From sequence record SRR31156797_1064: a DNA stretch of 20,000 nucleotides. The stretch is one strand, 5' to 3'. The position numbers and the translations under genes are program-made. Below, piece by piece: positions 1,667 through 18,416 of this stretch. The notes below the pieces were generated by a model that worked only from the letters and a program-made list of their open reading frames with translations, did not search any database and had not been told where the DNA came from. Position 1 is the stretch's first letter, and every line of letters begins with the position of its first letter.

Positions 1667-2788
1667 ATGAAGAAGATTGCCATCCAGATGGAAAGTGCGT
1701 GGTTGTCCCAGCTTAGCACTGAATTTGATAACATTTGTTACCAGTACAGATTACAGTTGCGGCCCCCTATCCTGCAGATTTCCAGATCAACAAGGGTACT
1801 GGGCAGCTGGGAAGGGCAATCGCGAACTCTGAGTATCAGCAGCTATCTTATACTAGAGCATCCGTGGCAGGTAACGCTGCAGGTATTAAAACATGAAATG
1901 GCCCACCAGATATGCAGTGAGATTTATCGTGATCAAAAAAACGGCCATGGGGAGGGGTTTAAGAAAGCATGTTGTTTGATTGGGGTGGACCAATGCTTTA
2001 AGCGGGCAGCGGCAGACACTGCAGAATTTCTTTCTGCCTGGCAAGAAGAAGAAAAAGCGCCTCAACAGCATATTCTGGATAAGATAAAGAAGTTATTTGC
2101 TCTGGGCCAATCTGGAAACGAACATGAAGCAGCCCTGGCTCTGCAAAAGGCAGGCAATCTGCTTCGGCAGCATAACTTGTCCATGGCTCATCTCGTGCAA
2201 AGCAATGATCTTACACACAGGACCATTGACACTAAGAAACAAAGAATGGCTGTGCATTTGAAGGTGATTTCTTCCCTCCTGGATGGCTACTTCGGTGTGC
2301 GCGTGATCCATGCAAGCCAGTATGATCCCTATTTGGATAAAGTCCATAAGACCATAGAACTGATGGGTACGAGGGAAAATGTTACCATTGCTGAGCATTG
2401 CTATTATTTTCTAGAAGAGCGGTTGGGTACACTTTGGAAGTCTCATCAGGGTGGCCTTGTTGGCGACCGCAGGATGGCAAAGAAGAGTTATTATCTGGGA
2501 CTTTTGGCTGGATTTAAAGAAAAACTTGCAAGCGAGAAAAAGGCTTCTGTTGCTCGGAAGGAACCTTTAGACAAAGCGCTTATGGAGAAGGCCTTATTGA
2601 AAACAGAAGACATGCTCGATATCTTTGTGACTAAGCGTTTCCCACGGCTGCGCACAACCAAAACCAACAAGATGTATATCAATCCTGATGTCTATCGCAA
2701 AGGTTGTGCGACAGGGAAAAAAATCCATCTTCGGCAGCCAATGGACGGTGGCCGTAAACCGCTGTTGTTGCCTGGAAAGGATGACTAA
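1667..2788 (+). CDS. SprT-like (HExxH) domain plus DUF2786-like domain protein
   Basis: N-terminal LGSW...LKHEMAHQ...HGEGFKKAC is an SprT-like metallopeptidase pattern. Central ILDKIKKLFALGQSGNEHEAALALQKAGNLLRQHNL is the typical DUF2786 pattern. Confidence 0.8.
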   Translation: MKKIAIQMESAWLSQLSTEFDNICYQYRLQLRPPILQISRSTRVLGSWEGQSRTLSISSYLILEHPWQVTLQVLKHEMAHQICSEIYRDQKNGHGEGFKKACCLIGVDQCFKRAAADTAEFLSAWQEEEKAPQQHILDKIKKLFALGQSGNEHEAALALQKAGNLLRQHNLSMAHLVQSNDLTHRTIDTKKQRMAVHLKVISSLLDGYFGVRVIHASQYDPYLDKVHKTIELMGTRENVTIAEHCYYFLEERLGTLWKSHQGGLVGDRRMAKKSYYLGLLAGFKEKLASEKKASVARKEPLDKALMEKALLKTEDMLDIFVTKRFPRLRTTKTNKMYINPDVYRKGCATGKKIHLRQPMDGGRKPLLLPGKDD

Positions 2789-5658
2789 TCATCTGTTTGG
2801 GTATCCTGAGGATTATTGGGACTCAGAAACTCGATACACTTCGGTAAAGGCATGGGCGGTGAGAAAAAATATCCCTGAATTTCAAAGCACCCCAGATTTT
2901 GAAGGCACTGCAGTTGTTCATTGTGCTCAACTCCCTCAGCGACCAGGCCTAAATTTAATTTTTTTGCCATGAGTATAATGGTTTCAACGATGGTGAAGTT
3001 CTCTCTGTCGCTAAGGATATCGTCTATAAAGGACTTGTCTATCTTAAGCACAGAGATCGGCAATTTTTTTAAATAGGCCATAGACGAGTAACCGGTTCCA
3101 AAGTCATCGACTGCAAGCATGATTTTGTGCTTCTCAAACCAATTTAACAGTTTACGAGTGGTGTCATCAGACTCCATGAGCAGTGATTCAGTAATTTCCA
3201 ATTCCAGAGAGGCTGGCGAGTAACCGGTCTGCTTGAGGGCTGTTTCTACCATTTCCTGGAAACCAGGATCAGCAAATTGTTTGGCCGAGACATTGACTGA
3301 TAATCTCAGGTTATATCCCGTAACCTTGCTTATCTCCTGAATGCCTTTAATCGCTTTATAAAGAATCTGCTGGCCCAAAGTGATGATGAGGCCGGATTCT
3401 TCTGCAACCGGGATGAACATATTGGGTGGAATAACCTTGCCGTTTGGCTTAATCCATCTAGCCAGCGCCTCAAAACAAACTGTGGTATTGGTGCGGCTGT
3501 CGATCCGTGGCTGGAAGTAAATCTGAAATTCATCATTTTCCACTGCACCACGCAGTTCGTGCTCTAGCTGCACTTTTCGACGTAGCTGTTGTTCTATTTC
3601 CGGATCAAAAAGATGATACATGTCTTTGCCATGATGTTTGGCCTGATACATGGCCAAATCAGCATTTTTTAACAATTCACCCGGAGTGGTCCCGTCGTCC
3701 GGGTAGACTGTTAGGCCGATGCTGCATGTAATGTGAAAATGATGTTCAGCAAGGTCAAAAGACTGGGTAAAAGCGGATTGCACCCGGTGGAGTACCTCAT
3801 CGATCTCTTGTTGGTTTTTGATATCCGGGATCATTGTGATAAATTCATCTCCGCCAAGTCTGGCCACTGTGTCACCAGTCCGAACAGAGGCCAGCAATCT
3901 CTGGGCCGCCTGTTGCAGTAGAACATCGCCTACGGCGTGACCAACGGTATCGTTGACCTTTTTAAAGTTATCCAGATCTATGAACAGAATAAGGATACGC
4001 TGTCCTTTTCTTTTCGCTGCGGCAATGGCTTGGGTAAGTCTATCGTTGAGCAGGGCACGGTTGGGAAGATCGGTGAGGGAGTCGTGATAGGCAAGATGAG
4101 TAATTTGTTTTTCTTTTGCCTTGATTTCCGAAATGTCATGGGACACAACCACATAATAGAAGGTACCGGTTGTATCATTGCGAATATTATTGACAGTCAA
4201 GAGTTCTGGAAAAATATCACCATTTTGACGTACATTCCATATTTCGCCGGACCATGTTCCTTCTTGGACAAGGCTCTCCCACATTATATCGTAAAAGTTT
4301 TCGTTATAATGATCAGTTTTATAGGCTCGCAGTTGTTTCCCCAAAGTCTCTGCAACAGGGTACCCGCTTATCTCTTCAAATGCCGGGTTGGCCGCCTGGA
4401 TGATGCCTTGATTGTCAATGATACTGATACCTTCAACAATGCTGTTGAAAACCTCTTCATATAAAAAGAGCTGCTTTTCTTTTTCCTGGCGATGTATGAT
4501 CTCCTGTTGGAGTTGCTTGTTTGCCCCCTCAAGTCTGTCCATGAACAAGTTAAAGCTGGTTGCCAGGCGGCCGATTTCATCCTGCCGTCCGCTGTCCATT
4601 CGAACCGTCCAGTCTTCTTTACCATGTTCAAGACGGTGAATGAATTGAATCAATGGTTTGAGAATGGTGGAACTGACAAGTAAGGTAATGATACCTGTAA
4701 TGCAAAGGGTGGTAAGCAGAATGAGAGCAAAAAGTTTTTGGATACGGGTAAGGGGTTCCAGCACTTCTTCGGCATAAACAGACGAGGCTACAATCCAGTC
4801 AAAGGAGGGGAGGGAGTCATAGGCCACGATCTTGGTACGGGCAATCTGGTCAGACGGATTTTTCCACGAATAGTAAAAGCTCCCTGTCTGGGTGTCTATC
4901 ATGTTTTTTATAAACGGCTGTCCGTTGTTGTCAACAGCGTCATAATGATTACCGCTAATTTCTGGGTGAACAATGATATCACCGCGGGTATTAACCACAA
5001 AGGGATACCCTGTGTCGCCAAAGGAAACATCCAGTATTTTATCTCTGAAATCACTTATATTGATAAGGTCGAAAAAATCCTTTTTGTAGGAAGTGACTGA
5101 GATGATCCAGTCCCAAGGCTCGAAATAAGCCATATAAAGAGCTTTGGGACTTTCCTGTTGTTCATTGGGATTTTTCCAGAAATATTCGAGGTAGCCGTTT
5201 TTGCGTTGGATCTGCTGCTGAATAAATTTTCGGTGAGAAAAATCTTCCCCTTGCACCCCTGTTTTTGGGTGCACCTGTGCTATGCCCCTACTGTCAATGC
5301 AGTAAACGTAACCTGTTTTGCCAACACTCTGGTTATCCAAAATTTCCATGGCATACTGCTTTGCCTCTAGCTCAGAAAGCATTCCCTGAAGGTATTTATC
5401 GTACATGCTCTCTATTACTTCAAGGTTACTTTCGGCGATGGCTCGCAGATGGTTTTTGATGGACACACTGGTAGTTGTTTCCACCATATCACGGATAATT
5501 TTATTAGTTTTATGAAGCTCTTGCTCAATGTTTTCAGTGAGGGTTGTTTTAAACTGGTGATAGAGAAGGGAAAAACTCGCTAGGAATATGAGGACAAAGA
5601 TGAGCCCGTAGGTCCAGAAAAGTCGAGTTCGAATTGAGGTGTTATTTGAAAAATGCAT
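2785..5658 (-). CDS. Membrane-bound diguanylate cyclase/phosphodiesterase (Cache-HAMP-PAS-GGDEF-EAL)
   Basis: TM1, two Cache-like repeats (GKTGYVYCID..HP...WDWII; GDTGYPFVVN..HP...FDWIV), TM2, HAMP (QDEIGRLATSFN), PAS (NPAFEEISGY...WSGEIWN), AYHDSLTDLPNR, DLDNFKKVND, RTGD-x5-GGDEF, FEALARW, ELEITES, DDFGTGYSS, AEGVE, QGYFFS. ATG at 5658 or TTG at 5667. The stop overlaps the stop of the convergent gene. Confidence 0.95.
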   Translation of the reverse strand: MHFSNNTSIRTRLFWTYGLIFVLIFLASFSLLYHQFKTTLTENIEQELHKTNKIIRDMVETTTSVSIKNHLRAIAESNLEVIESMYDKYLQGMLSELEAKQYAMEILDNQSVGKTGYVYCIDSRGIAQVHPKTGVQGEDFSHRKFIQQQIQRKNGYLEYFWKNPNEQQESPKALYMAYFEPWDWIISVTSYKKDFFDLINISDFRDKILDVSFGDTGYPFVVNTRGDIIVHPEISGNHYDAVDNNGQPFIKNMIDTQTGSFYYSWKNPSDQIARTKIVAYDSLPSFDWIVASSVYAEEVLEPLTRIQKLFALILLTTLCITGIITLLVSSTILKPLIQFIHRLEHGKEDWTVRMDSGRQDEIGRLATSFNLFMDRLEGANKQLQQEIIHRQEKEKQLFLYEEVFNSIVEGISIIDNQGIIQAANPAFEEISGYPVAETLGKQLRAYKTDHYNENFYDIMWESLVQEGTWSGEIWNVRQNGDIFPELLTVNNIRNDTTGTFYYVVVSHDISEIKAKEKQITHLAYHDSLTDLPNRALLNDRLTQAIAAAKRKGQRILILFIDLDNFKKVNDTVGHAVGDVLLQQAAQRLLASVRTGDTVARLGGDEFITMIPDIKNQQEIDEVLHRVQSAFTQSFDLAEHHFHITCSIGLTVYPDDGTTPGELLKNADLAMYQAKHHGKDMYHLFDPEIEQQLRRKVQLEHELRGAVENDEFQIYFQPRIDSRTNTTVCFEALARWIKPNGKVIPPNMFIPVAEESGLIITLGQQILYKAIKGIQEISKVTGYNLRLSVNVSAKQFADPGFQEMVETALKQTGYSPASLELEITESLLMESDDTTRKLLNWFEKHKIMLAVDDFGTGYSSMAYLKKLPISVLKIDKSFIDDILSDRENFTIVETIILMAKKLNLGLVAEGVEHNEQLQCLQNLGCFEIQGYFFSPPMPLPKCIEFLSPNNPQDTQTDD

Positions 5659-5741
5659 AAAGCCCAAGGAGGTGAGGGAGACTGTGCAGCTTTTTTTACT
5701 TCTTGCGAAAAGAGGCTTACCTCTTCAGAATAATTATGCAC

Positions 5742-8448: not shown

Positions 8449-9195
8449 TTATTTAGGATCTGTCCCAAACCATTTTACATAGAGTTCTTTGTAGGTACCG
8501 TTGGCACGCAATGCTTCCAGGGCTTTGTTAACCTTGGCAACCAGTTCGCTGCCCTTGGGAAATCCGATACCATAAGACTGTCCCTGATAAATGGGGCCGA
8601 CAATTTTAACCTTGCCATGACCGGCTTTGCGTACGAAATCACTTATAACTGGCGAATCAAAAATAACCGCATCCGCACCACCGCTCATCAATTCCATAAA
8701 CATTGCGTCATTATTGGGGAAAAGTTTTACTTCTTTTGCCTTAGCATTGGCTTTGACAAAGTCCACGGAGGTCGTTCCGAGTTTAGTGGATACAATCTTG
8801 CCTTTTAATCCCTCAATGTCACTGATCTGCTGATTGTCTTTGCTGACCAGAAGGAGTAAGCCTGCATTGTAATACCCATCGGAAAAATCGACGACTTTGG
8901 CACGTTCCGGTTTAATGGTTATGCCTGCAATGCCGACATCCAGTTGCCCTGATTGGAGACCGGGAATGATGCCGTTAAAATCCATTGGTTGGAGTTCGTA
9001 TTCTACGCCGATTTCTTTGGCGATCGCGTCCCATAGTTCAACGTCAAAACCGGTATGTTTGCCGGTTTTGGGATCCTTAAATTCAAAAGGGGGGAAGTTG
9101 GTGTCGCAGGCAACAGTAAGTTTTTTTGCCATTGCAGTTGTATTGGCGGCAATGACGATAGCAATTACTGCCATCAGGGTAATGACTTTTTTCAT
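8449..9195 (-). CDS. glnH: Glutamine-like amino acid ABC transporter periplasmic binding protein (SBP family 3)
   Basis: Signal peptide, DTNFPPFEF, GFDVELWDAIAK, PMDFNGIIPGLQ, AGITI..ER, DFSDGYY, YGIGFPKGS and KWFG, all GlnH-like. RBS GAGGAGG lies upstream. Confidence 0.9.
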   Translation of the reverse strand: MKKVITLMAVIAIVIAANTTAMAKKLTVACDTNFPPFEFKDPKTGKHTGFDVELWDAIAKEIGVEYELQPMDFNGIIPGLQSGQLDVGIAGITIKPERAKVVDFSDGYYNAGLLLLVSKDNQQISDIEGLKGKIVSTKLGTTSVDFVKANAKAKEVKLFPNNDAMFMELMSGGADAVIFDSPVISDFVRKAGHGKVKIVGPIYQGQSYGIGFPKGSELVAKVNKALEALRANGTYKELYVKWFGTDPK

Positions 9196-9349
9196 ACATC
9201 CTCCTCAGATTTTGTTGCGGGTTAACTAGAGCGGTACTGCAGCGCTGAGTCATTGTAAGAACTTTTATAAAAAATGCTGCTGTTTATGACACAAACAGTA
9301 CCCGTGAGCATGACAGATTACGGGTGAGAGTTCAACTGTTAAATAGTTC

Positions 9350-9364
9350 TCATGATTCGTGCCT
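9350..9364 (-). promoter_or_regulatory. Possible sigma54-type promoter for glnHPQ-dat
   Basis: The - strand reads AGGCACGAATCATGA versus consensus TGGCACG-N4-TTGC. The -24 box matches well; the -12 box is imperfect (GA instead of GC). Confidence 0.3.
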
Positions 9365-9545
9365 TTTTGTATTTTTACCTAAGTAAATTGGAGAGCCGTT
9401 TTTGAATGAGGGTCAGTTCGAAAAGAGTAGTGTCTGTGTGCAGGAGAAGGTGATGTTTTTCTGGTTACTTTTAGTGTTTATAAGGCTACTTTGGGAAGAG
9501 GTGCGGAAAACTGTTGACCTGCTGGCCTGAAACGTTGAAAATCGC

Positions 9546-9574
9546 TTGTCTCTCAGCAGATTCTGACGCATAAT
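9546..9574 (+). promoter_or_regulatory. Candidate sigma70 promoter for the fadL-like gene
   Basis: TTGTCT (9546-9551), 17-bp spacer, CATAAT (9569-9574), about 80 bp upstream of the ATG at 9653. Confidence 0.45.
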
Positions 9575-9652
9575 AATCTTGTGCTGGTCACTGCAAGCAG
9601 GCAGTAATTAGCTTGATTCATAAACAATATTCATCATTTTTCAGCCCATTCT

Positions 9653-10942
9653 ATGGCGTCATTTGTTAAAATATTAAAAGTTGGTTGCGGTCTTTACCTT
9701 GCCTGGCTCTTGTTGTTTCCTGTTCAGGCAATAGGCAGTGGGTTTCGGATTGCCAATCAGTCTGCAGTTGCTGTGGGGCTCGCAGGTGCGCATGTCGCCT
9801 ACACTCCAGGTGCAGATGCAGGGTTCTATAACCCCGCTAATATGACTGTTCTTGCTGATAGATGGCAAGTTGAAGCGAGCCTGACTACCCTCCATCTGCC
9901 CTCCATTGATTATCGTGACAACAGGTCTGCACTGTTGAATGGGAGTTCAGCCGAAGAGTGGTTCTTTTTTCCCCTTATCCATATGGTTTCTCCTGAATAT
10001 AACGGGTTCAGATTTGGGTTTGCCCTGACTTACCCTTTCGGGCTTTCCAAACAATGGGATCAAGTGTTCCCGCAGATGTATGCCCGCAATTTTTCGATGC
10101 TGACTGTGGAGGGCAACCCTACCGTTGCCTATGCTTTGACAGACAAGTTGTCTGTAGGTGGCGGATTGCGCCTGGTGTATGGCACCGGTGAAATGGAAAA
10201 TGTTGTTCAGAATCCACCGGCAGAGCAGTTAGCACCTTTGTCCTCTCTACAAAATAGTCTGGATGGTGATGCTCTGGAATTTGGGTATAACCTTGCACTT
10301 ACCTTTTCCCCGGTTGAGAGCATGAATTTCGCTGCAACCTTTCGTTCAGAGGTAGTAATGCATCTTGAGGGTGATGCAGAGCTTACTGCCTTGGCTGGGG
10401 ATATGACGGTACAGCAATTTGCTGGCGATGGTCAACTCGATGTGCCTCTCCCTGCCGTTTTTGCTCTGGCAGCATCATGGCAGCTTGACAAGTGGACATT
10501 TGAATTCGTTTGGGATCGGACATTCTGGTCCGGTGTCAGGGAATTCGACCCCAATTATGGAGTTTCTCTCAGGCAAACGCCCTTTAATGGATTTGACGTT
10601 CCAGTTGCAAAAAACTGGGAGGATGCCGATGCCTACCGGTTTGGTGTCTGGTACCAATGGAATGAAGTCTTGACAACAACCGTAGGCATTGCTTTTGAGC
10701 AGACTCCGGTTCCTGAGGAGACGCTGGGGTTCGACCTGCCGGATGCCGATGCTGTAGTCTATGCGGTTGGTATCCAGTATAGCCTGAATTCCCAGTTCGA
10801 CCTCGCCCTTTCTTACATGTATCATCATACCAAGAGCCGCTCAGTTGAAAATGCAGGTAATGCTGGGCTTGTGGGGGTTGATGGTTCTTTTAGCGGAGGA
10901 GGTGCGCATGCAGTTGCTGTGGGAGTGCGCTACCTCTTTTAG
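9653..10942 (+). CDS. fadL: FadL/OmpP1/TodX family outer-membrane channel for long-chain fatty acids or other hydrophobic compounds
   Basis: Signal peptide followed by SGF..NQS...G.AGA, the conserved NPA hatch motif (FYNPAN), PFGL..W, NPTVAY, LSVGGG, W.DA..YRFG, LPDAD and a C-terminal aromatic BAM signal (VRYLF). Confidence 0.9.
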   Translation: MASFVKILKVGCGLYLAWLLLFPVQAIGSGFRIANQSAVAVGLAGAHVAYTPGADAGFYNPANMTVLADRWQVEASLTTLHLPSIDYRDNRSALLNGSSAEEWFFFPLIHMVSPEYNGFRFGFALTYPFGLSKQWDQVFPQMYARNFSMLTVEGNPTVAYALTDKLSVGGGLRLVYGTGEMENVVQNPPAEQLAPLSSLQNSLDGDALEFGYNLALTFSPVESMNFAATFRSEVVMHLEGDAELTALAGDMTVQQFAGDGQLDVPLPAVFALAASWQLDKWTFEFVWDRTFWSGVREFDPNYGVSLRQTPFNGFDVPVAKNWEDADAYRFGVWYQWNEVLTTTVGIAFEQTPVPEETLGFDLPDADAVVYAVGIQYSLNSQFDLALSYMYHHTKSRSVENAGNAGLVGVDGSFSGGGAHAVAVGVRYLF

Positions 10943-10974
10943 GTCGTCTTATGAAGTAATTTTCGTTATTTCCC

Positions 10975-11039
10975 ATCCGGGTTAAGCTGTGCGTAAAAGG
11001 ATTTAACCACAGCTTACCCCGGATTTCTTGTCAGTTCAG
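10975..11039 (+). terminator. Intrinsic terminator after the fadL-like gene
   Basis: Inverted repeat ATCCGGG-T-TAAGCTGTG ... CACAGCTTA-C-CCCGGAT followed by TTCTT. Confidence 0.7.
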
Positions 11040-11296
11040 GCGGCGTCAAATTTGAAATTTTTTGGCAATGAATAGGTAGGCGTATACGCCGATAGCAGCT
11101 TATCTTGGTTGCAAAAATACTGAAGAAAATGATGCTGGATGGGCTGATCTTTGATGTATATTGTGTAAATTTGCAAACTCCATGAGATGCCGCCTAAAAT
11201 AGATAAATTGTTTAAAAAATAAAACCAGGCGCAATGTTCATGAGAAATCCTGGTTAGTGCTTAATTGTAAAAACCTATACCTTTGCAGGAGCAGCT

Positions 11297-12817
11297 ATGC
11301 CATCAGAAGTTGGAACATCTTTTTTCTCTCAAACGTCCATGGAGGACGAATCCCGACTGCTCCAGTCGGTTCTTGGACATGCCGTCCACCAAGCTTTTAT
11401 GCCTGAAGAGCCGATCCTCGCCCCAGGTACCGATACAGATGCATTTTACTACGTCATTAGGGGTGCAGTGGAAGTCAGCTACACTGATAATCATGATACT
11501 CGAATTACCGTGGCTCTGATTGGTCAGGGTGAATTTTTTGGTGAGATCGGCTTTTTTGACGGCGAGTCAAGGGTGAGGGATATCAGAGCTGTTGAAAATG
11601 CTGAAATCGCCATTTTCAATGGGCGTGTCATGGATAAACTACAGCAAGAATCACCTCAGGTGAGTATGGATTTTTTGGTTTTTTTAACCAAAAAAATATG
11701 CCGCAAGTTTAGACGAATAGCAGGAGAAAGGGAACCCCTTGCGGGGTATGCGGATTCCCTTTCTAGCCGAAGGTCTGGACGGTACAGCGAATCGAAACCA
11801 CTTCCAGCTTCACTTATCCATGCAGATAGTTGGCATACTATCAGCAGCAGTGTCGAGGGTTTCAAAGCTGAGTTGTTTAATTTTTCCCACCAACTTCAAC
11901 AGAAAGAAGCCGTTGGAGAAACAGATCAGGACTGTGAGAGCAGGTGTTACAATGTGCTTTCCACATTAAATGATGCTCTTCCTGTTTTTCAGAAAAAAAT
12001 GGCCGGTACAGGGTATGAGAAGGTGATGTGGGGGTATGTGTTCAAGGAAATTTTTCCTTATTTCATGCGCAGTGAATTTGCCGAGCGAGCTTACTTCAAG
12101 CCCAAGGGGTATGCAGGTGATTTCCTGATGATGGAACATATTTATGCCAATATCCCCAAAGGGGAGGGGACGCTGGGTAAAATTATTGATCAATTTTGCC
12201 TCCAGCGTCCGGGAGCGCTTGCCATCCACGGCAGGAGGCGACTGTTGAAGAGAGAGCTGTTACGGATGAGCAGTAAGCTCGCTGAATCGGGGAATCGAAT
12301 CAGGATAATGAACTTGGCTTGCGGTCCCAATAGGGAGCTGTTTGATTTTCTGGCAGAGTGTGAGTGTAGCGAACTGGTGGAAGCGCTGTGTATTGATATT
12401 GATTCCGATGCGTTGCGATACACCAACCAACATGTCAATGTGTTCCCCCACAACGCATCTGTCAGGTTGATGAGTGAAAATGTTATCAAGTGGTCCTTGG
12501 GAAGGGTAAAGCAACAAATTGCACCCCAAGATATTATTTACTCTGCCGGTTTATGCGATTACCTGGACACTCGGCTTTTTCGGGCATTGATAACCCAGTG
12601 CCATAAGCACTTGAAGCCCGGTGGTACGCTGCTGTTAGGAAATTTCACCCACTATACTGACTCCCTGTTTCTCGATAAGCTGCTCCGTTGGGAATTGATC
12701 TACAGAACGGAAGAGGACCTGAAAGAGCTCTTTGCACCCACCCCTTTTGGCAACAATGTAAGTATTCTCTCTGAAAGTGAAGAAGTAAATCTTTTTGCGA
12801 TGGCTGTGAAGGAATAA
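11297..12817 (+). CDS. cNMP-binding domain fused to a class I SAM-dependent methyltransferase, PhcB-like (putative fatty-acid methyl ester signal synthase)
   Basis: N-terminal CAP/cNMP fold (FYYVIRGAVEV...GQGEFFGEIGF....R). C-terminal RAYFKPKGYAGDFLMM (KPK...GDF at 12098-12124), IMNLACGP (motif I), IDID, IYSAGLCDYL and LKPGGTLLLGNF...W.LIYRT. I recognise the KPxGYAGD + GLxDYL + WxLxYR set as typical of the PhcB-like family; this is not database-verified. Confidence 0.85.
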   Translation: MPSEVGTSFFSQTSMEDESRLLQSVLGHAVHQAFMPEEPILAPGTDTDAFYYVIRGAVEVSYTDNHDTRITVALIGQGEFFGEIGFFDGESRVRDIRAVENAEIAIFNGRVMDKLQQESPQVSMDFLVFLTKKICRKFRRIAGEREPLAGYADSLSSRRSGRYSESKPLPASLIHADSWHTISSSVEGFKAELFNFSHQLQQKEAVGETDQDCESRCYNVLSTLNDALPVFQKKMAGTGYEKVMWGYVFKEIFPYFMRSEFAERAYFKPKGYAGDFLMMEHIYANIPKGEGTLGKIIDQFCLQRPGALAIHGRRRLLKRELLRMSSKLAESGNRIRIMNLACGPNRELFDFLAECECSELVEALCIDIDSDALRYTNQHVNVFPHNASVRLMSENVIKWSLGRVKQQIAPQDIIYSAGLCDYLDTRLFRALITQCHKHLKPGGTLLLGNFTHYTDSLFLDKLLRWELIYRTEEDLKELFAPTPFGNNVSILSESEEVNLFAMAVKE

Positions 12818-14521
12818 ATGATATCGCTGCAAAGTCATTCGTTGTCGAATAGTTTTACCGGGGACCTGAACCTGCTTTTTTATCAGCGTGCTCTTTTCTG
12901 CTTGTGGCTCTGCGCTATATTTTTTTCTATTTTCTCGCTGCTTGACTATGTCTGCTATCCTGAACATTTTTATCGTTTTGGCTTGTATAGGTTGGCTTAT
13001 GTACTCACGCTTTTATTTATGGTTGCATTCATTCGCCTGTCGGTTGGCAGGCGTTATGTCCGGCAGGTTATATATGTGGGGATGCTGCTGGGAAGCATGA
13101 CCATTTCCCTAATGACTGTTGAGTTGGGTGGTTTTGTCTCAGGGTACTATGTTGGTATTTTGCTTATGATAGCAGGAGGGTTTACTGTATTGCCCTTCAC
13201 TGTTTCTCAGGCGATAGTCACCGGATTGTCCATGTATTGTGTGTATGTGGTCACAGTAATAACTGCAATGGAGCCTCTGCAGCCTCAGGCTATACATTAT
13301 GCCTTAAATAATAGTTTCTTTTTTTTCTGTATAACCGGTGTGACTGCCATTCAAAGTTTTGATGATCTTCGGATACAGCTTAAGGCTTTGCAGTCGCAGA
13401 AAAGCCTTCGCAGTTTGAAAGCCGACCTGGTTAAGTATAAGGATAACTTGGAAGAGTTGGTGCGGCAGCGTGTTCAACAAAAAGAAGAGTCAGAATTGCG
13501 TTTCAAGGATCTGTATAACAACATTGATGATCTGATTGTTGTTATTGATGGTATGGGGGTGATACAGCAGTCAAACGGCAGTGCATCTAAATTGTTGGCA
13601 GGTGGGGAAAACACTTTATACGCTAGACCATTGAGTCAGTTTTTTCCAGATCAGGAAAGTGGGAAAAGTGTAGCTGCTGTGGTGGCAAGGCTTGAAAATG
13701 GGGAAGCGATAAGCAGTTTGCAACTGCAGCTGCAGACTGAAAAGAAGCGGCTGATTGAAGCTGAAATGAGTGGAACCAGGGTTTACATTTCGGGTAGTGA
13801 TCCGCTGTATCAGCTGATTATCCGTGATATAAGCGCCACCAAAGAGATGGAGCGTAAAGTGCTTGAGTCGAACCGGCTCCTTGATTCCTCTCGTCAGGCT
13901 GCAATATTCGGCCTGGCCCATCTAGCTGAATGTAGAGATGATGAAACCGGTGCCCACCTCAATCGCATTCGCGAATACACTTTATTGTTGGCAGAAGAGC
14001 TTGAAAAAGAACCAGAGGTGCAGCGGCAGGTCACTGAGAGTTTTAAAGAAGATATTTATCGATCATCTGTTCTCCATGATATCGGCAAAGTGGGAATACC
14101 CGATGATATTTTGTTGAAGCCCGGGAAGTTGATTGATGAGGAAATGAAAATAATGCAGCAGCACTGTTACCTGGGCAGTCAAGTGCTTAAAAATGCGGAA
14201 GAGATGTCGGGTGTCAGGTCTTTTTTAACGATGGGACAGGAGATCTGCTGCCACCATCATGAGCGTTGGGATGGGACCGGTTATCCTGAAAAATTAGCAG
14301 GTGGAGATATTCCCCTGGCAGCAAGGATCGTGGCTCTGGCTGATGTGTACGATGCATTGACATCAAGACGAACATATAAACCGGCTTATTCCCATGACCA
14401 CGCGCGGCAATTCATTATCAGTAGTAGTGGTAAACACTTTGACCCATTGGTGGTTAAAGCCTTCTTACGTCAAGAAACTGAATTCAAAAGGGTGCGGAAA
14501 AACTTACTGCTGAACGGGTAA
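12818..14521 (+). CDS. Multi-TM sensor-PAS-HD-GYP cyclic dinucleotide phosphodiesterase (canonical motifs)
   Basis: About 5-6 hydrophobic helices in aa 20-180, a coiled coil, PAS (RFKDLYNN...IRDIS), then ECRDDETGAH, LHDIGKVGIPD.IL.KPGKL, HHHERWDGTGYP, IPLAARIVALADVYDAL and RRTYK. The ATG directly abuts the upstream TAA. Confidence 0.92.
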   Translation: MISLQSHSLSNSFTGDLNLLFYQRALFCLWLCAIFFSIFSLLDYVCYPEHFYRFGLYRLAYVLTLLFMVAFIRLSVGRRYVRQVIYVGMLLGSMTISLMTVELGGFVSGYYVGILLMIAGGFTVLPFTVSQAIVTGLSMYCVYVVTVITAMEPLQPQAIHYALNNSFFFFCITGVTAIQSFDDLRIQLKALQSQKSLRSLKADLVKYKDNLEELVRQRVQQKEESELRFKDLYNNIDDLIVVIDGMGVIQQSNGSASKLLAGGENTLYARPLSQFFPDQESGKSVAAVVARLENGEAISSLQLQLQTEKKRLIEAEMSGTRVYISGSDPLYQLIIRDISATKEMERKVLESNRLLDSSRQAAIFGLAHLAECRDDETGAHLNRIREYTLLLAEELEKEPEVQRQVTESFKEDIYRSSVLHDIGKVGIPDDILLKPGKLIDEEMKIMQQHCYLGSQVLKNAEEMSGVRSFLTMGQEICCHHHERWDGTGYPEKLAGGDIPLAARIVALADVYDALTSRRTYKPAYSHDHARQFIISSSGKHFDPLVVKAFLRQETEFKRVRKNLLLNG

Positions 14522-14540
14522 GTGATAGCGGATAAAGGAA

Positions 14541-16238
14541 ATGGCAACGGTAACTAAAGAGAACGGGTACTTGACTGAGGTGCAGGAACTGCATCACCGG
14601 AGGGTTTATTATATCCTGCTGCTCGGGATCGCCCTCATGTTAAGTTTTAGTTTGCTGGACTATATACTCGTTCCTTTCTATTTCAATGAATTCTTAATCT
14701 ATCGCTTGATAGTGTGTGCGGGTGGCCTGCTTCTGGTGGGAGCCAATTACTATGATCGTCAAAAGAGATGGTCGCTTGCGATCGGGTTGTTTGGTTATAT
14801 CCTCGCCGGTACGGTGATCTTGATTATGATCTACAGGATGGGGGGGGCCCAATCGCCTTATTATGTGGGTTTGATTGTCATCATGACCATCTATACCACC
14901 CTGACACCGTTGACTCTGAGTCAGACCCTTGTTTCGGGATTTTTACTGATCGCCGGTTATCTACTTGCTGTAATCAGCGGTGATTTGCTTATTACTGTTC
15001 AGCCATTGTGGGTCTTCAGTAACTTCTTTTTTATGTTTTGTTTTGTCTGTATCGCAGCTACCCAGAGTGCTACTGAAACAAGTGCCAGGAAATTTGAGTA
15101 CAGGCTGCGCCAACAGGAGCAGCGAGCAGCTTTTGATCTACAAAAACAGGCTCTCAATCTTGAAAAGGAGGTCAGTCAGAGGACAGCGCAGATAAAGTTG
15201 TCTGAAGAGAAGTATCAACTCTTATTTAACAATCTTGCTGATGATGTGGTCTTGGTTAATCCGTTTGGTATGATTTTGCAGGCCAATGCTGCTTTTATTC
15301 GCCATTTCGGGAGTGAGATTGTAACAGAAAAGCATTCTATTTTTGATATTATGCCTGTCAAAAAGCAGTTGGAATTACAGCATATTCTGGACTCTGTCAT
15401 GACGTCGGAATCCTCTTTTTCCGCTTACCAGGTTGAGCTAACACTCAAAAAGAAAGGGCAATGCACCGTTGAGATAACGGCCTCCCTGCTGCAGCGGGAA
15501 GGTAAACGGGTCGGTGTGCAGCTGGTACTGCGGGATATCAGCGTTCGTCTGGGATTGGAAAGGAAACTCGTAGATTCTCTGAAAACAGTGCGGTATACGG
15601 AGGAGGCTGCCATCCTTGCTCTGGCAAAGCTTTCGGAATATCGGGAAATGCGATCGGGAAACCATTTGGAACGTATTCGTGCATTCTGTAAAGTGATAGC
15701 CCAGGGGGTTGTCGATGAGCCAGACTATATTGATAGTGTTACACCAGCCTTTGTTGATGACATCTACCATGCTTCTGTATTGCATGATATCGGCAAGGTG
15801 ACTATTTCCGATACACTCTTACGTAAAACAGAATCGCTTACCGCCTTGGAACGTGATATCATTCGTAATCACACTTTGGCCGGGGGGGATGTGATAAAGG
15901 ACATGGAGGCAGAAGGCCACGGAAGCGGCTTTCTTGCCATGGCTAAAAGCATTGCCTATTTTCATCATGAAAGGTGGGATGGAAAGGGATATCCGCACGG
16001 ACTTATCGGTACCGAAATTCCTTTGGCCGCTCGAATTTTGTCGGTAGCAGACGGATATGAGGAAATGACGCGATTCAATAGTGCCGGCCACAGAAGGCTG
16101 GACCATGATGAGGCGTTGGTGCAGATAATGAATAGCAGTGGTAAGGCTTTTGATCCGGTCGTGGTCAAGGTGGTTGTTAATTGCGAGAAAAAAATGGATG
16201 AAATCCGGGTACATTTTGCAAGAAGCCTGGGCGACTAG
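14541..16238 (+). CDS. Multi-TM sensor-PAS-HD-GYP protein, paralog with a partly degenerate C-terminal motif
   Basis: Same architecture as the preceding gene. LHDIGK and HHERWDGKGYP are intact, but ADGYEEMTRFNSAGH replaces ADVYDALTSRRTYK and LRKTESL replaces LLKPGKL. RBS AAAGGAA. Confidence 0.9.
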   Translation: MATVTKENGYLTEVQELHHRRVYYILLLGIALMLSFSLLDYILVPFYFNEFLIYRLIVCAGGLLLVGANYYDRQKRWSLAIGLFGYILAGTVILIMIYRMGGAQSPYYVGLIVIMTIYTTLTPLTLSQTLVSGFLLIAGYLLAVISGDLLITVQPLWVFSNFFFMFCFVCIAATQSATETSARKFEYRLRQQEQRAAFDLQKQALNLEKEVSQRTAQIKLSEEKYQLLFNNLADDVVLVNPFGMILQANAAFIRHFGSEIVTEKHSIFDIMPVKKQLELQHILDSVMTSESSFSAYQVELTLKKKGQCTVEITASLLQREGKRVGVQLVLRDISVRLGLERKLVDSLKTVRYTEEAAILALAKLSEYREMRSGNHLERIRAFCKVIAQGVVDEPDYIDSVTPAFVDDIYHASVLHDIGKVTISDTLLRKTESLTALERDIIRNHTLAGGDVIKDMEAEGHGSGFLAMAKSIAYFHHERWDGKGYPHGLIGTEIPLAARILSVADGYEEMTRFNSAGHRRLDHDEALVQIMNSSGKAFDPVVVKVVVNCEKKMDEIRVHFARSLGD

Positions 16239-16433
16239 GAACAGATTTGAGATCGGTCTTTATAAAAAAAATTGATGAGTATGTGTAGAGAAATTTCACA
16301 TATTTCCCTTGCTGTTCACGGCTAAATACACTAAAAAACAGCACAGACATTTTGTAAATTAATGCCTATGTCCTGTCTGTTGAGACAGTATAATCACAGG
16401 CAAGACTGACATTCTGAAACGGAGGAATACTGA

Positions 16434-17447
16434 ATGAAGCAAAACATTATGCGCGGCCCACTGCTTAAAGCCGGGGTTGTACTGCTTATCTTTACCCTGC
16501 TTGTGTACTTTACCAGTACTTCAGCAAATGGAAGTGTTTGGAGTAGCATTGCAATGATTTTTATTGGTGCCATTAATCTGATCAAGTGGGCTATTGGGAT
16601 GATTATTGGGTTGGGAGTCTGCCTGGCTGTACTTTTCGGTATTTTTCTTGGTGCCGTAGCTATGGTCAACAAGGAAAGCGCTGCGAGTATGTATGCAGCT
16701 TTGAAAGTAACCCTCGGGGAATGGCTTGCAGAGGGTTTGGTCGCTGCTGGTAACATGAAGGCCTGTGCCCAGCAACGGGAAACTGCATCCCCGCAAGTAC
16801 AGCAGCCGGTGATTACTGACAGCACCAAGGTCGATGATATTCACAATATGCTGGAAAGCAAGCTCGACGATTTGACCGCTAAAATTCATGCTCTTGAATC
16901 GAAAATGGAAGCTTTCGCCTCCACTGATAAACTTGACCAGGTGGCAGGAGAAGTCAATGCTTCCGGTGATGCCTTGCAGAAACTCAGTGAGGTCCTTACT
17001 GGATTAGAGACAAAAGTAGACGATGCCCATGGTAAACTGCAGGATATTTCCTCTGAAAAATTGCTTGGTGACTTACCTGGTCGAGTGACCAGTATCGAAG
17101 CAAAGGATGTTGCCAGTAAGGATGACATCAAGCCTATCGTCGATTTGGTGGAAAGGCTGCAGACAGAAATCCAGGATGGTATTGCTGGCATTGCTCAAAG
17201 CGGCGAAGAAGCAGGCCACGGTGGCAACGCAAGCGATCAAGAAGTCCATCGCTTGTTCAGTTACTTTGAGGATGTTGCGGACCAGGAAAAAATCCAGTCC
17301 CTGGTTGAGGAAACATTGAAAAAAGATATGACTTATGCCCAGGTGATGAATCATCTGGTGGTAGAAATGGGTACTGAAAAAGGACAAATTATTTCAGATC
17401 ATCCATCGCTTGCAAAGGATTACATTCGTCAGGCCAGACGCGCTTAA
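16434..17447 (+). CDS. Hypothetical membrane-anchored coiled-coil protein
   Basis: Strong RBS GGAGGAA. Two or three N-terminal hydrophobic segments, a heptad-rich acidic central region, a Gly-rich linker and a small C-terminal helical domain. Confidence 0.85.
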   Translation: MKQNIMRGPLLKAGVVLLIFTLLVYFTSTSANGSVWSSIAMIFIGAINLIKWAIGMIIGLGVCLAVLFGIFLGAVAMVNKESAASMYAALKVTLGEWLAEGLVAAGNMKACAQQRETASPQVQQPVITDSTKVDDIHNMLESKLDDLTAKIHALESKMEAFASTDKLDQVAGEVNASGDALQKLSEVLTGLETKVDDAHGKLQDISSEKLLGDLPGRVTSIEAKDVASKDDIKPIVDLVERLQTEIQDGIAGIAQSGEEAGHGGNASDQEVHRLFSYFEDVADQEKIQSLVEETLKKDMTYAQVMNHLVVEMGTEKGQIISDHPSLAKDYIRQARRA

Positions 17448-17459
17448 GTTAGAAAGCTG

Positions 17460-17616
17460 GTAGCTACTCACAGGGCATCGAACCTTCTTACGATCAGACT
17501 GGTTTACGTATGACCAATACGCGATACCAGGCTGCTTGTAAAAAACTCCGGCACCCTGCAAGTAGTTACAATTACAGGGTGTTGCCAAATAGAATTGCGC
17601 CCCCGTGAGTAGTTAC
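17460..17616. repeat. 157-bp element bounded by imperfect 16-bp inverted repeats (MITE/REP-like)
   Basis: Left GTAGCTACTCACAGGG (17460-17475) and right CCCCGTGAGTAGTTAC (17601-17616) are 14/16 reverse-complementary. A third internal copy CCCTGCAAGTAGTTAC (17554-17569) matches 13/16. Confidence 0.55.
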
Positions 17617-17637
17617 GAAAACTGTATGTAAGAAAGG

Positions 17638-17679
17638 AAAACCCTGTCTTCTGCTTTGCAGAAGACAGGGTTTTTTTTT
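17638..17679. terminator. Bidirectional intrinsic terminator between convergent genes
   Basis: AAAACCCTGTCTTCTGC-TTT-GCAGAAGACAGGGTTTT is a perfect 17-bp stem with a 9-T tract on the + side and a short A-tract on the other side. Confidence 0.9.
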
Positions 17680-17732
17680 ATGTGCTATGTACATTGTCGC
17701 CATATCTTGACTGGGGAGACGACCAACATTTT

Positions 17733-18416
17733 TCAGCGAGGCAGCAGCTCTTTGAAATATTCAATGGATGGGAACCTGCATGAATACTGAACCCGCTGTC
17801 TACTGCTGGGTCGGGCAACAAAAAGTAGGTGGCCCATGCCATATTGCTCTGCTGAAGAGAGAACCTTCTCCGTGTCATCAATAAGCAACGTCCGGTTTTT
17901 ATCATAGTTGAGAACTCTTTCCAATTTGTTCCAGAAAAGTGGCTCTTCTTTGGCATAGCCAATTTCTTCGGCGCAGATAATTTGATCAAACCACGGGCTA
18001 AGGGCTGTTTTTTCAAGCTTTATAGAGAGTGTGCTTGAATGAGCGTTGGTTACAAGATAGAGCTTTTTGCGCATCTTGATACAGGATTCAAGGAATTCAA
18101 TTACATAAGGATGGACACCTATGAGGTGGTTGATACGCAGCTTGAGTTCAGGGATGTCCAGACCCAGTTCACGGGACCAGAAACTGGTGTCAGCCCAAGT
18201 TAAGGTGTTCTCAACCTCAGAATATCTATCAAGCAGTTCCTTTTTAGCCGCTTCCACCGAAATGTCACGGACGAGACTATAGTGTTCTGGCAAGTATTGT
18301 TCCCAGAAGTAGTCATCAAAATGTTTGTCCAACAGGGTGCCGTCCATGTCTAAAAGGACGGTATCAATGGCGTCCCATGAGAACTCAGGTATTGTTTTAT
18401 CGCAGTAATTTTGCAT
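17733..18416 (-). CDS. yrfG: HAD-superfamily hydrolase, GMP/IMP nucleotidase YrfG-like
   Basis: IDTVLLDMDGTLLD.HFD.YFW, W...FWSRELGLDI, LVTNAH, GYAKE...FW and TLLIDD. It starts 5 bp after the mfd stop. Confidence 0.8.
   Translation of the reverse strand: MQNYCDKTIPEFSWDAIDTVLLDMDGTLLDKHFDDYFWEQYLPEHYSLVRDISVEAAKKELLDRYSEVENTLTWADTSFWSRELGLDIPELKLRINHLIGVHPYVIEFLESCIKMRKKLYLVTNAHSSTLSIKLEKTALSPWFDQIICAEEIGYAKEEPLFWNKLERVLNYDKNRTLLIDDTEKVLSSAEQYGMGHLLFVARPSSRQRVQYSCRFPSIEYFKELLPR

Follow-up and report, generated by a model that had tools for sequence, protein, structure and literature searches.

A Phc-like methyltransferase and receptor module with a candidate direct output to c-di-GMP in a Desulfobulbus-like bacterium

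Four co-oriented genes between positions 9,653 and 16,238 of a 20,000-nucleotide stretch of DNA from sequence record SRR31156797_1064 (the window, meaning that whole stretch) encode a FadL-family outer-membrane channel, an S-adenosylmethionine (SAM)-dependent methyltransferase (MT) with an N-terminal cyclic-nucleotide-binding (cNMP) domain, and two paralogous membrane receptors that end in HD-GYP domains. Judged by its sequence, the locus is best read as a remote relative of the Phc synthase and sensor pair of Ralstonia and Cupriavidus, with changed input and output domains. Catalytic and sensor domain homology, conserved gene adjacency, swapped output domains and intact HD-GYP motifs are what the sequences show. 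We put at slightly better than even (about 0.55) the probability that these genes constitute a Phc-like synthase and receptor module, in which a cNMP-gated MT would be coupled to a direct c-di-GMP phosphodiesterase output without phosphotransfer.

The four genes lie on the + strand at 9653-10942, 11297-12817, 12818-14521 and 14541-16238, with intervening gaps of 354, 0 and 19 bases. Open reading frames (ORFs) and Pfam matches confirm what the initial annotation had described, namely four co-oriented genes of which the last three are tightly coupled. The absence of a histidine kinase and a response regulator from the cluster, also claimed there, holds as well, a Pfam scan of the window ORFs having found neither in 9653-17447. 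The closest relatives of the MT come from Desulfobulbales, with 92% identity to a Desulfobulbus metagenome-assembled genome and 74% to Desulfogranum mediterraneum, and the host of the window is, on such sequence kinship, a Desulfobulbus-like bacterium; the window itself carries no sign of sulfate reduction. Its features are as follows, with lengths in amino acids (aa) and TM for transmembrane.

9653..10942, +: FadL/TodX-family outer-membrane channel, 429 aa (Pfam PF03349)
10943..11296, +: spacer before the MT gene, 354 bases, with one promoter-like site at 11171-11200 (consensus scan)
11297..12817, +: cNMP-binding and PhcB-family SAM methyltransferase, 506 aa, the proposed signal synthase (Pfam, BLASTP, hhalign)
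11393..11647, +: cyclic-nucleotide-binding domain of the MT, residues 33-117 (Pfam PF00027)
11945..12811, +: helical lid and Rossmann methyltransferase domain of the MT, residues 217-505, with KPKGYAGD at 268-275 (hhalign, BLASTP, fold)
12818..14521, +: receptor 1, 567 aa, comprising a PhcS-type 6-TM sensor, a coiled coil, PAS and HD-GYP (Pfam, BLASTP, hidden Markov model, HMM)
12866..13387, +: 6-TM sensor domain of receptor 1, about residues 17-190 (BLASTP, AlphaFold model)
13502..13831, +: PAS domain of receptor 1, residues 229-338 (Pfam PAS, E=3.8e-6)
13925..14449, +: HD-GYP domain of receptor 1, residues 370-544 (HD_5, E=2e-30)
14541..16238, +: receptor 2, 565 aa, a paralogue of receptor 1 with the same architecture (Pfam, BLASTP, HMM)
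14598..15080, +: 6-TM sensor domain of receptor 2, about residues 20-180 (BLASTP, hydropathy)
15207..15539, +: PAS domain of receptor 2, residues 223-333 (Pfam PAS, E=1.3e-7)
15741..16163, +: HD-GYP domain of receptor 2, residues 401-541 (HD_5, E=1e-24)
16434..17447, +: ORF of 337 aa with two N-terminal TM segments (hydropathy) and a coiled coil (no family above threshold)

The catalytic domain of the MT is homologous to that of PhcB. It matches Methyltransf_20 in Pfam (31.7 bits against a cut-off of 21), and the KPxGYAGD motif, found as KPKGYAGD at residues 268-275, is invariant in three separate alignments, those of the PhcB family, the window family and a third clade. In BLASTP, residues 252-503 share 29% identity (E=3e-30) with the protein that NCBI names [quoted passage not shown], while an hhalign comparison of the window family with the PhcB family gave a probability of 99.9 and E=2.3e-33 over the MT domain only, residues 217-505. 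Across Desulfobulbales, the MT protein is conserved at 59-77% identity. A search of 1.84 billion representatives returned 4501 relatives of the MT domain, and in most of the 75 longer relatives scanned, from 150 listed, a cNMP-binding domain precedes it. A tblastn search of plasmids also reached an operon on a Paraburkholderia graminis plasmid that encodes an MT (468 aa), a kinase (445 aa) and two response regulators in succession; this MT can be taken as a Phc orthologue because it is 64% identical to Ralstonia PhcB over the full length.

The AlphaFold model of the window MT (mean pLDDT 79.6) finds its closest solved folds in 3ocj, the alpha-keto acid C-methyltransferase SgvM, AprA MT2, PsoF, the CurJ C-methyltransferase and CmoA, enzymes that act on small molecules or acyl chains, protein methyltransferases not being among them. 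A sequence search of the PDB gave matches limited to the cNMP domain and nothing for the MT part, and a protein atlas look-up returned generic methyltransferase clusters only, the clusters of 10 representatives carrying no useful names. We read the MT as a member of the PhcB superfamily, not a PhcB orthologue, and as a SAM methyltransferase that probably acts on small molecules. Its product would be a hydrophobic methylated compound, most plausibly a fatty-acid-derived methyl ester as with PhcB, which abstracts describe as the methyltransferase that makes 3-hydroxypalmitic or 3-hydroxymyristic acid methyl ester (3-OH PAME/MAME), a secreted, diffusible signal.

At its N-terminus, the MT carries a cNMP_binding domain (PF00027, residues 33-117, E=1.7e-15, 57.2 bits against a cut-off of 27.5), which matches CRP structures both by sequence (E=5e-9) and by fold. 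Within the window family, F81-G82-E83 and R92 of this domain are invariant, among them the Gly-Glu and Arg that belong to the phosphate-binding cassette in CRP. Two 979-aa relatives (P0147 and P0213) among the 75 scanned are fusions of an adenylate/guanylate cyclase, a cNMP domain and an MT, and the existence of such fusions supports a real cNMP control of the family; class III cyclases are encoded in all three of the related genomes. A cyclic nucleotide thus probably gates MT activity.

In more distant relatives from the same phylum, another input domain occupies this position. PilZ replaces the cNMP domain in nine of the 11 distant MT relatives scanned (L095, L097, L100, L102 and L105-L109, these being loci of our comparison), with matches at or above the gathering cut-off except in L097, and a sensor-domain receptor adjoins seven of the nine, L095 and L097 being without one. 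The PhcB family aligns with these PilZ-type MTs at E=2e-46 over nearly the full length, N-terminus included, and the N-terminus of PhcB may for this reason be a degenerate PilZ-like domain, Pfam detecting no PilZ in PhcB itself.

Both receptors present about 200 hydrophobic residues unassigned by Pfam ahead of PAS and HD_5/HD domains, which are the only Pfam domains in them, so that a HisKA and HATPase transmitter is not part of either protein. The two share 31% identity. In BLASTP, their TM domains match the sensor domain of the PhcS-like kinase from the Paraburkholderia operon, the orthologous system with which the PhcS comparison was made in place of Ralstonia PhcS itself, at E=2e-12 for receptor 1 and E=1e-9 for receptor 2. 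An HMM built from 92 Desulfobulbales sensor domains only scores this same kinase at E=8e-23. Run against the 2965 ORFs of the collected loci, the HMM gave 145 matches at E<=10, the weakest at 1.7e-8, with a gap from there to 10, and all 145 are training sequences, the window pair, truncated orthologues, or receptors whose genes neighbour that of an MT or of another such receptor. Three Desulfobulbales genomes each carry exactly two copies of the sensor domain, both of them at the module locus. By these comparisons, the N-terminal domains of both receptors are homologous to the PhcS-type sensor domain, a relationship that is new here and goes beyond what the initial annotation had seen in the sequence.

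The AlphaFold model of receptor 1 folds this domain into six helices (pLDDT >90) joined by very short loops, with helix six continuing as a long helix into the PAS domain, and hydropathy shows six hydrophobic segments in receptor 2. Positions common to the sensor domains include LD(Y), an Arg in helix 2, S.YY.GL, a Pro and N(N).FF. Pfam MASE8 gave weak matches spanning most of its model, at 16.9 bits (E=0.0077) for receptor 1 and 17.6 bits (E=0.0044) for the PhcS-like kinase, and none for receptor 2. Since all of these fall below the gathering cut-off of 26.2, an identification as MASE8 was dropped, and MASE8 and the sensor domain are distant relatives at best.

The output domains are recognized by HD_5 at E=2e-30 in receptor 1 and E=1e-24 in receptor 2. 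All HD-GYP motifs of receptor 1 (HD, HHE..DG.GYP and the metal ligands) are invariant in 46 orthologues, and its HD-GYP domain shares 43% identity with that of PA4781 (4r8z), with a TM-score of 0.90 and a root-mean-square deviation of 2.1 Å. Receptor 1 thus looks fully catalytic.

Conservation of the module was followed at two depths. Among 50 Desulfobulbales loci, whose MTs are 59-92% identical to that of the window, the MT, receptor 1 and receptor 2 genes are consecutive in 43 of the 45 long enough to be assessed, the exceptions being L012, where the receptor 1 ORF is cut to 444 aa, and L018, where receptor 1 is present outside the distance filter. Of 401 genomes drawn from the phylum to which D. 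mediterraneum belongs, 38 have an MT relative at E<=1e-10, 14 of them at E<=1e-99, and 29 MT places with flanks were taken from this sample, 13 of them orthologous and 16 distant. A sensor-domain gene is adjacent and co-oriented to the MT gene in 23 of these 29 wider loci; the number of independent cases is lower than 23 because of near-duplicate loci (L089/L090 and L100/L103).

The outputs attached to the sensor domain vary across these 23 loci: hybrid kinase in 17, TM-HD-GYP in three, TM-PAS-HD-GYP in one and PP2C in two. All 13 orthologous loci are paired, nine with hybrid kinases (HisKA-HATPase-REC), three with TM-HD-GYP proteins that have no PAS domain and one with a TM-PAS-HD-GYP pair, while the 16 distant loci comprise eight with hybrid kinases (that of L103 being assigned from the near-identical locus L100, without a Pfam scan), two with PP2C/SpoIIE phosphatases, five with another context and one at a contig edge. 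One of the PP2C/SpoIIE loci encodes an additional TM-PAS-GGDEF-EAL protein. Adjacency of MT and sensor holds across MTs of 28-78% identity and four output types. Besides, REC-HD-GYP regulators of the RpfG type (L106:7155-8267 and L108:12571-13689) adjoin pairs of a PilZ-type MT and a hybrid kinase, so that in some relatives an HD-GYP output is also reached via a phosphorelay.

L081, the closest genome beyond the 50 Desulfobulbales loci, has two ORFs between its two TM-PAS-HD-GYP genes. One of them (L081:5018-7090, - strand) encodes a 690-aa PilZ-PAS-sigma54 activator, possibly a c-di-GMP reader beside the phosphodiesterases.

From these homologies, we infer how the module would work, including the MT product, its diffusion between cells, the cNMP ligand and the direction of regulation. 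By binding to the CRP-like domain at the N-terminus of the MT, a cyclic nucleotide would gate this enzyme, which would make a hydrophobic methylated product, most plausibly an ester derived from a fatty acid. This product would be sensed within the membrane by the PhcS-type six-helix domain of both receptors, and the signal would pass through the coiled coil and the PAS domain to HD-GYP, altering c-di-GMP hydrolysis directly and without phosphotransfer. FadL, where present, may help the hydrophobic signal to cross the outer membrane. Such a module may have a role in quorum sensing.

Several observations weigh against this reading or narrow it, beginning with the phylogeny of the MT. The Burkholderiales PhcB sequences form a clade of their own, supported at 100 in both the FastTree and the IQ-TREE trees, and in both the window MT falls outside it, in another well-supported clade with orthologues from its phylum. 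FastTree places the window and PhcB clades on the same side of a split supported at 99, whereas IQ-TREE joins the window clade to a receptor-less clade with a support of 91. The deep branching order of the MT superfamily is therefore unstable, and we claim no sister relationship to PhcB. The PhcB-like MT of the initial annotation thus stands as a true homologue with a common catalytic domain, and not as a member of the PhcB clade, a placement outside which had been named beforehand as speaking against the proposal. The N-terminal domains of the two proteins differ, giving no alignment in hhalign, and the substrate and product of the MT may differ from those of PhcB, since identity is only 29%, limited to the catalytic domain, between members of separate clades.

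On the receptor side, receptor 2 orthologues (n=46) keep HD and GYP and consistently lack the C-terminal ADVYDALTS.R.YK stretch of receptor 1. Receptor 2 may thus be a weaker enzyme or a modulator, and the loss of the stretch suggests that the paralogous receptors divide labour. A receptor is absent from six of the 29 wider loci, five of which have another common context and one of which lies at a contig edge. The comparative evidence spans two lineages, Desulfobacterota and Burkholderiales, and the adjacency on which much of it turns does not separate an MT that makes a ligand from an MT that modifies a receptor, or from mere co-regulation.

FadL is the least constant of the four genes. The protein is a clear member of PF03349 (Toluene_X/FadL; E=4e-56, profile positions 6-421 of 421) and not an equivalog of E. 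coli FadL, the NCBIfam FadL equivalog model giving 92 bits against a cut-off of 585. Its gene lies directly upstream and co-oriented in 28 of the 42 assessable Desulfobulbales loci, other genes taking that place in the remaining 14, and no FadL match was found in the 29 wider loci of the phylum. By these counts, FadL is a frequent but dispensable neighbour, peripheral to the module, and of the four-gene synteny proposed in the initial annotation it is the trio of MT and receptors that survives. A paper that, by its title, reports modulation of extracellular long-chain N-acyl homoserine lactones (AHLs) by FadL in a rhizobium provides a precedent for FadL in signal traffic.

Sister and distant members of the MT family include genes without a receptor. 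In a negative control that speaks for the pairing, no sensor domain was found in 80 metagenome loci of the sister cNMP-MT clade, where a flank of at least 1.5 kb was available on one side in 49 and on both sides in 21; neighbours in this receptor-less clade vary, with cyclases at two of the 12 loci inspected. The receptor-less MT genes of L094-L098 lie downstream of genes for an EF-G-like GTPase, a small ORF and a MoCF_biosynth protein, as seen from L095, the one locus of the five whose neighbours were scanned.

A relay confined to a single cell would explain a good part of the same evidence: a cNMP-activated MT would methylate a membrane lipid or fatty acid, and the 6-TM domains in the cell's own membrane would read the change and adjust c-di-GMP, making the locus a device for cross-talk from cAMP/cGMP to c-di-GMP and not for communication between cells. 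This would suit a synthase with a second-messenger input, cNMP in the window MT and PilZ in related clades, and a sensor whose model is nearly free of periplasmic loops; moreover, neither export nor dependence on cell density is evident in the window, and FadL is dispensed with in 14 of 42 Desulfobulbales loci. We consider it unlikely nonetheless, since the product of the characterised homologue PhcB is described in abstracts as secreted and diffusible, two thirds of the Desulfobulbales loci have FadL beside the module, and two receptors for a single internal cue would be less economical. It is less likely still, at around one chance in ten, that the genes are simply co-transcribed signalling genes without a ligand in common, the 6-TM domain responding to a different cue from the membrane or the environment and the MT acting on an unrelated metabolite. 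The receptor-less clade shows that the MT family can work without a sensor; such independence would nevertheless sit poorly with an adjacency that persists across MTs of 28-78% identity and four output types, with a sensor domain confined to this locus in three genomes, and with the Ralstonia pairing, described in the available accounts as a synthase and its sensor.

The pairing could also be that of an enzyme with its substrate, the MT being a protein methyltransferase that modifies the adjacent receptors in a CheR-like adaptation. Strict adjacency to sensor-domain proteins irrespective of output would be expected of such an enzyme, one NCBI record labels a PhcB-family member "MCP methyltransferase, CheR-type", and CheR models do match the SAM-binding part weakly, mostly below cut-off, the one score above it (28.9 bits against 27) containing no single stretch that passes. 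These matches are limited to the generic Rossmann part, however, while the closest solved folds are small-molecule and acyl-carrier-linked methyltransferases and the homologue PhcB is reported to be a signal synthase, so that we regard receptor methylation as the least probable of these explanations. The Phc-like module with a diffusible product remains our preferred reading.

Compared with the Phc system in the species complex of Ralstonia solanacearum and in Cupriavidus, the window locus shares a homologous KPxGYAGD MT domain, a homologous 6-TM sensor and adjacent, co-oriented genes. In Ralstonia, phcBSRQ is described as one operon in which the synthase is paired with its sensor. The window MT, in contrast, belongs to a separate clade and has a cNMP N-terminus, where that of PhcB aligns with PilZ-type MTs; its partners deliver a PAS-HD-GYP output, where that of the Phc sensor is HisKA-HATPase; and the window, which comes from a different phylum, has two receptors and lacks both response regulators and a PhcA-type regulator. 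The distribution of the phc cluster has been reported as restricted within Betaproteobacteria, in a comparison limited to Pseudomonadota genomes. A survey of HD-GYP architectures, in the part available, names several membrane sensor domains, this 6-TM domain not being one of them, and does not contain the word methyltransferase. The literature searched, mostly open-access and with supplements excluded, described neither Phc-like genes from Desulfobacterota nor any link between PhcB and HD-GYP.

In the Rpf system of Xanthomonas, a lipid-type signal ends in an HD-GYP phosphodiesterase. The parallel drawn in the initial annotation with this diffusible signal factor (DSF)/Rpf pathway (RpfF, RpfC and RpfG) is one of logic and not of descent, and amounts to an analogy only: by Pfam, an RpfF-type crotonase and an RpfC-type hybrid kinase are missing from the window ORFs and the HD-GYP proteins carry no REC domain, and membership in DSF/Rpf was rejected because these defining parts are absent. 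RpfG itself belongs to the REC-HD-GYP family according to the available part of the HD-GYP survey. Among HD-GYP proteins of solved structure, PA4781 (4r8z), 43% identical to receptor 1 in this domain, and PmGH (4mcw) receive their input through REC or other soluble N-terminal domains, whereas the window receptors receive theirs through the 6-TM sensor and PAS.

Around the module, the nearest other signalling gene encodes a 960-aa dCache-HAMP-PAS-GGDEF-EAL protein (2785-5667, - strand, by Pfam), 4 kb upstream, which stays near the module only in the closest relatives, L001 and L048. A gene for a SprT-like, DUF2786 and DUF7168 protein (1667-2788, + strand) adjoins an M48 peptidase gene (290-1603), and this SprT-like/M48 pair lies near the module again in L001, L009, L017 and L050. 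The 337-aa ORF at 16434-17447, co-oriented with the module, has a relative (33-51% identity) in 24 of the 50 loci from Desulfobulbales, some loci ending before they would reach it, and its membership in the module is doubtful. Promoter and terminator scans of 9100-17800 showed no excess over shuffles, with 16 promoter consensus matches against 13.6, which makes the promoter-like site at 11171-11200 a weak one. A perfect 17-bp hairpin at 17638-17674, between the convergent 16434-17447 ORF and a HAD hydrolase gene (17733-18416), looks like a two-way terminator; the sole Rfam match, to a small RNA family at 31 bits against a threshold of 90, falls on this hairpin, so that Rfam detected no family above threshold, and no tRNAs were found in the window.

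Phc signalling is treated, in the literature as far as it was available, as peculiar to Ralstonia and related Betaproteobacteria. Going further than the evidence above, we entertain as a tentative possibility, well short of an even chance, that Phc is a late branch of an old and wider family in which a second-messenger-gated MT (cNMP or PilZ) would make a lipophilic signal for an intramembrane 6-TM receptor with repeatedly swapped outputs (kinase, HD-GYP, PP2C or GGDEF-EAL). In Desulfobulbales, such a module would couple cAMP/cGMP in one chemical step, by way of a diffusible ester, to the hydrolysis of c-di-GMP, a form of quorum sensing that does not use AHLs and would control the switch of these anaerobes between biofilm and dispersal. 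If the Phc-like reading is true, the Phc synthase and sensor domain belong to a wider family that reaches the anaerobic Desulfobacterota and has at least four kinds of output, and the locus would connect a lipid-type signal with c-di-GMP turnover by a shorter route than any so far, its signal synthesis being gated by a cyclic nucleotide. In this sense, the natural domain swaps of the family would be a resource for learning how PhcS-type sensors recognize their ligands.

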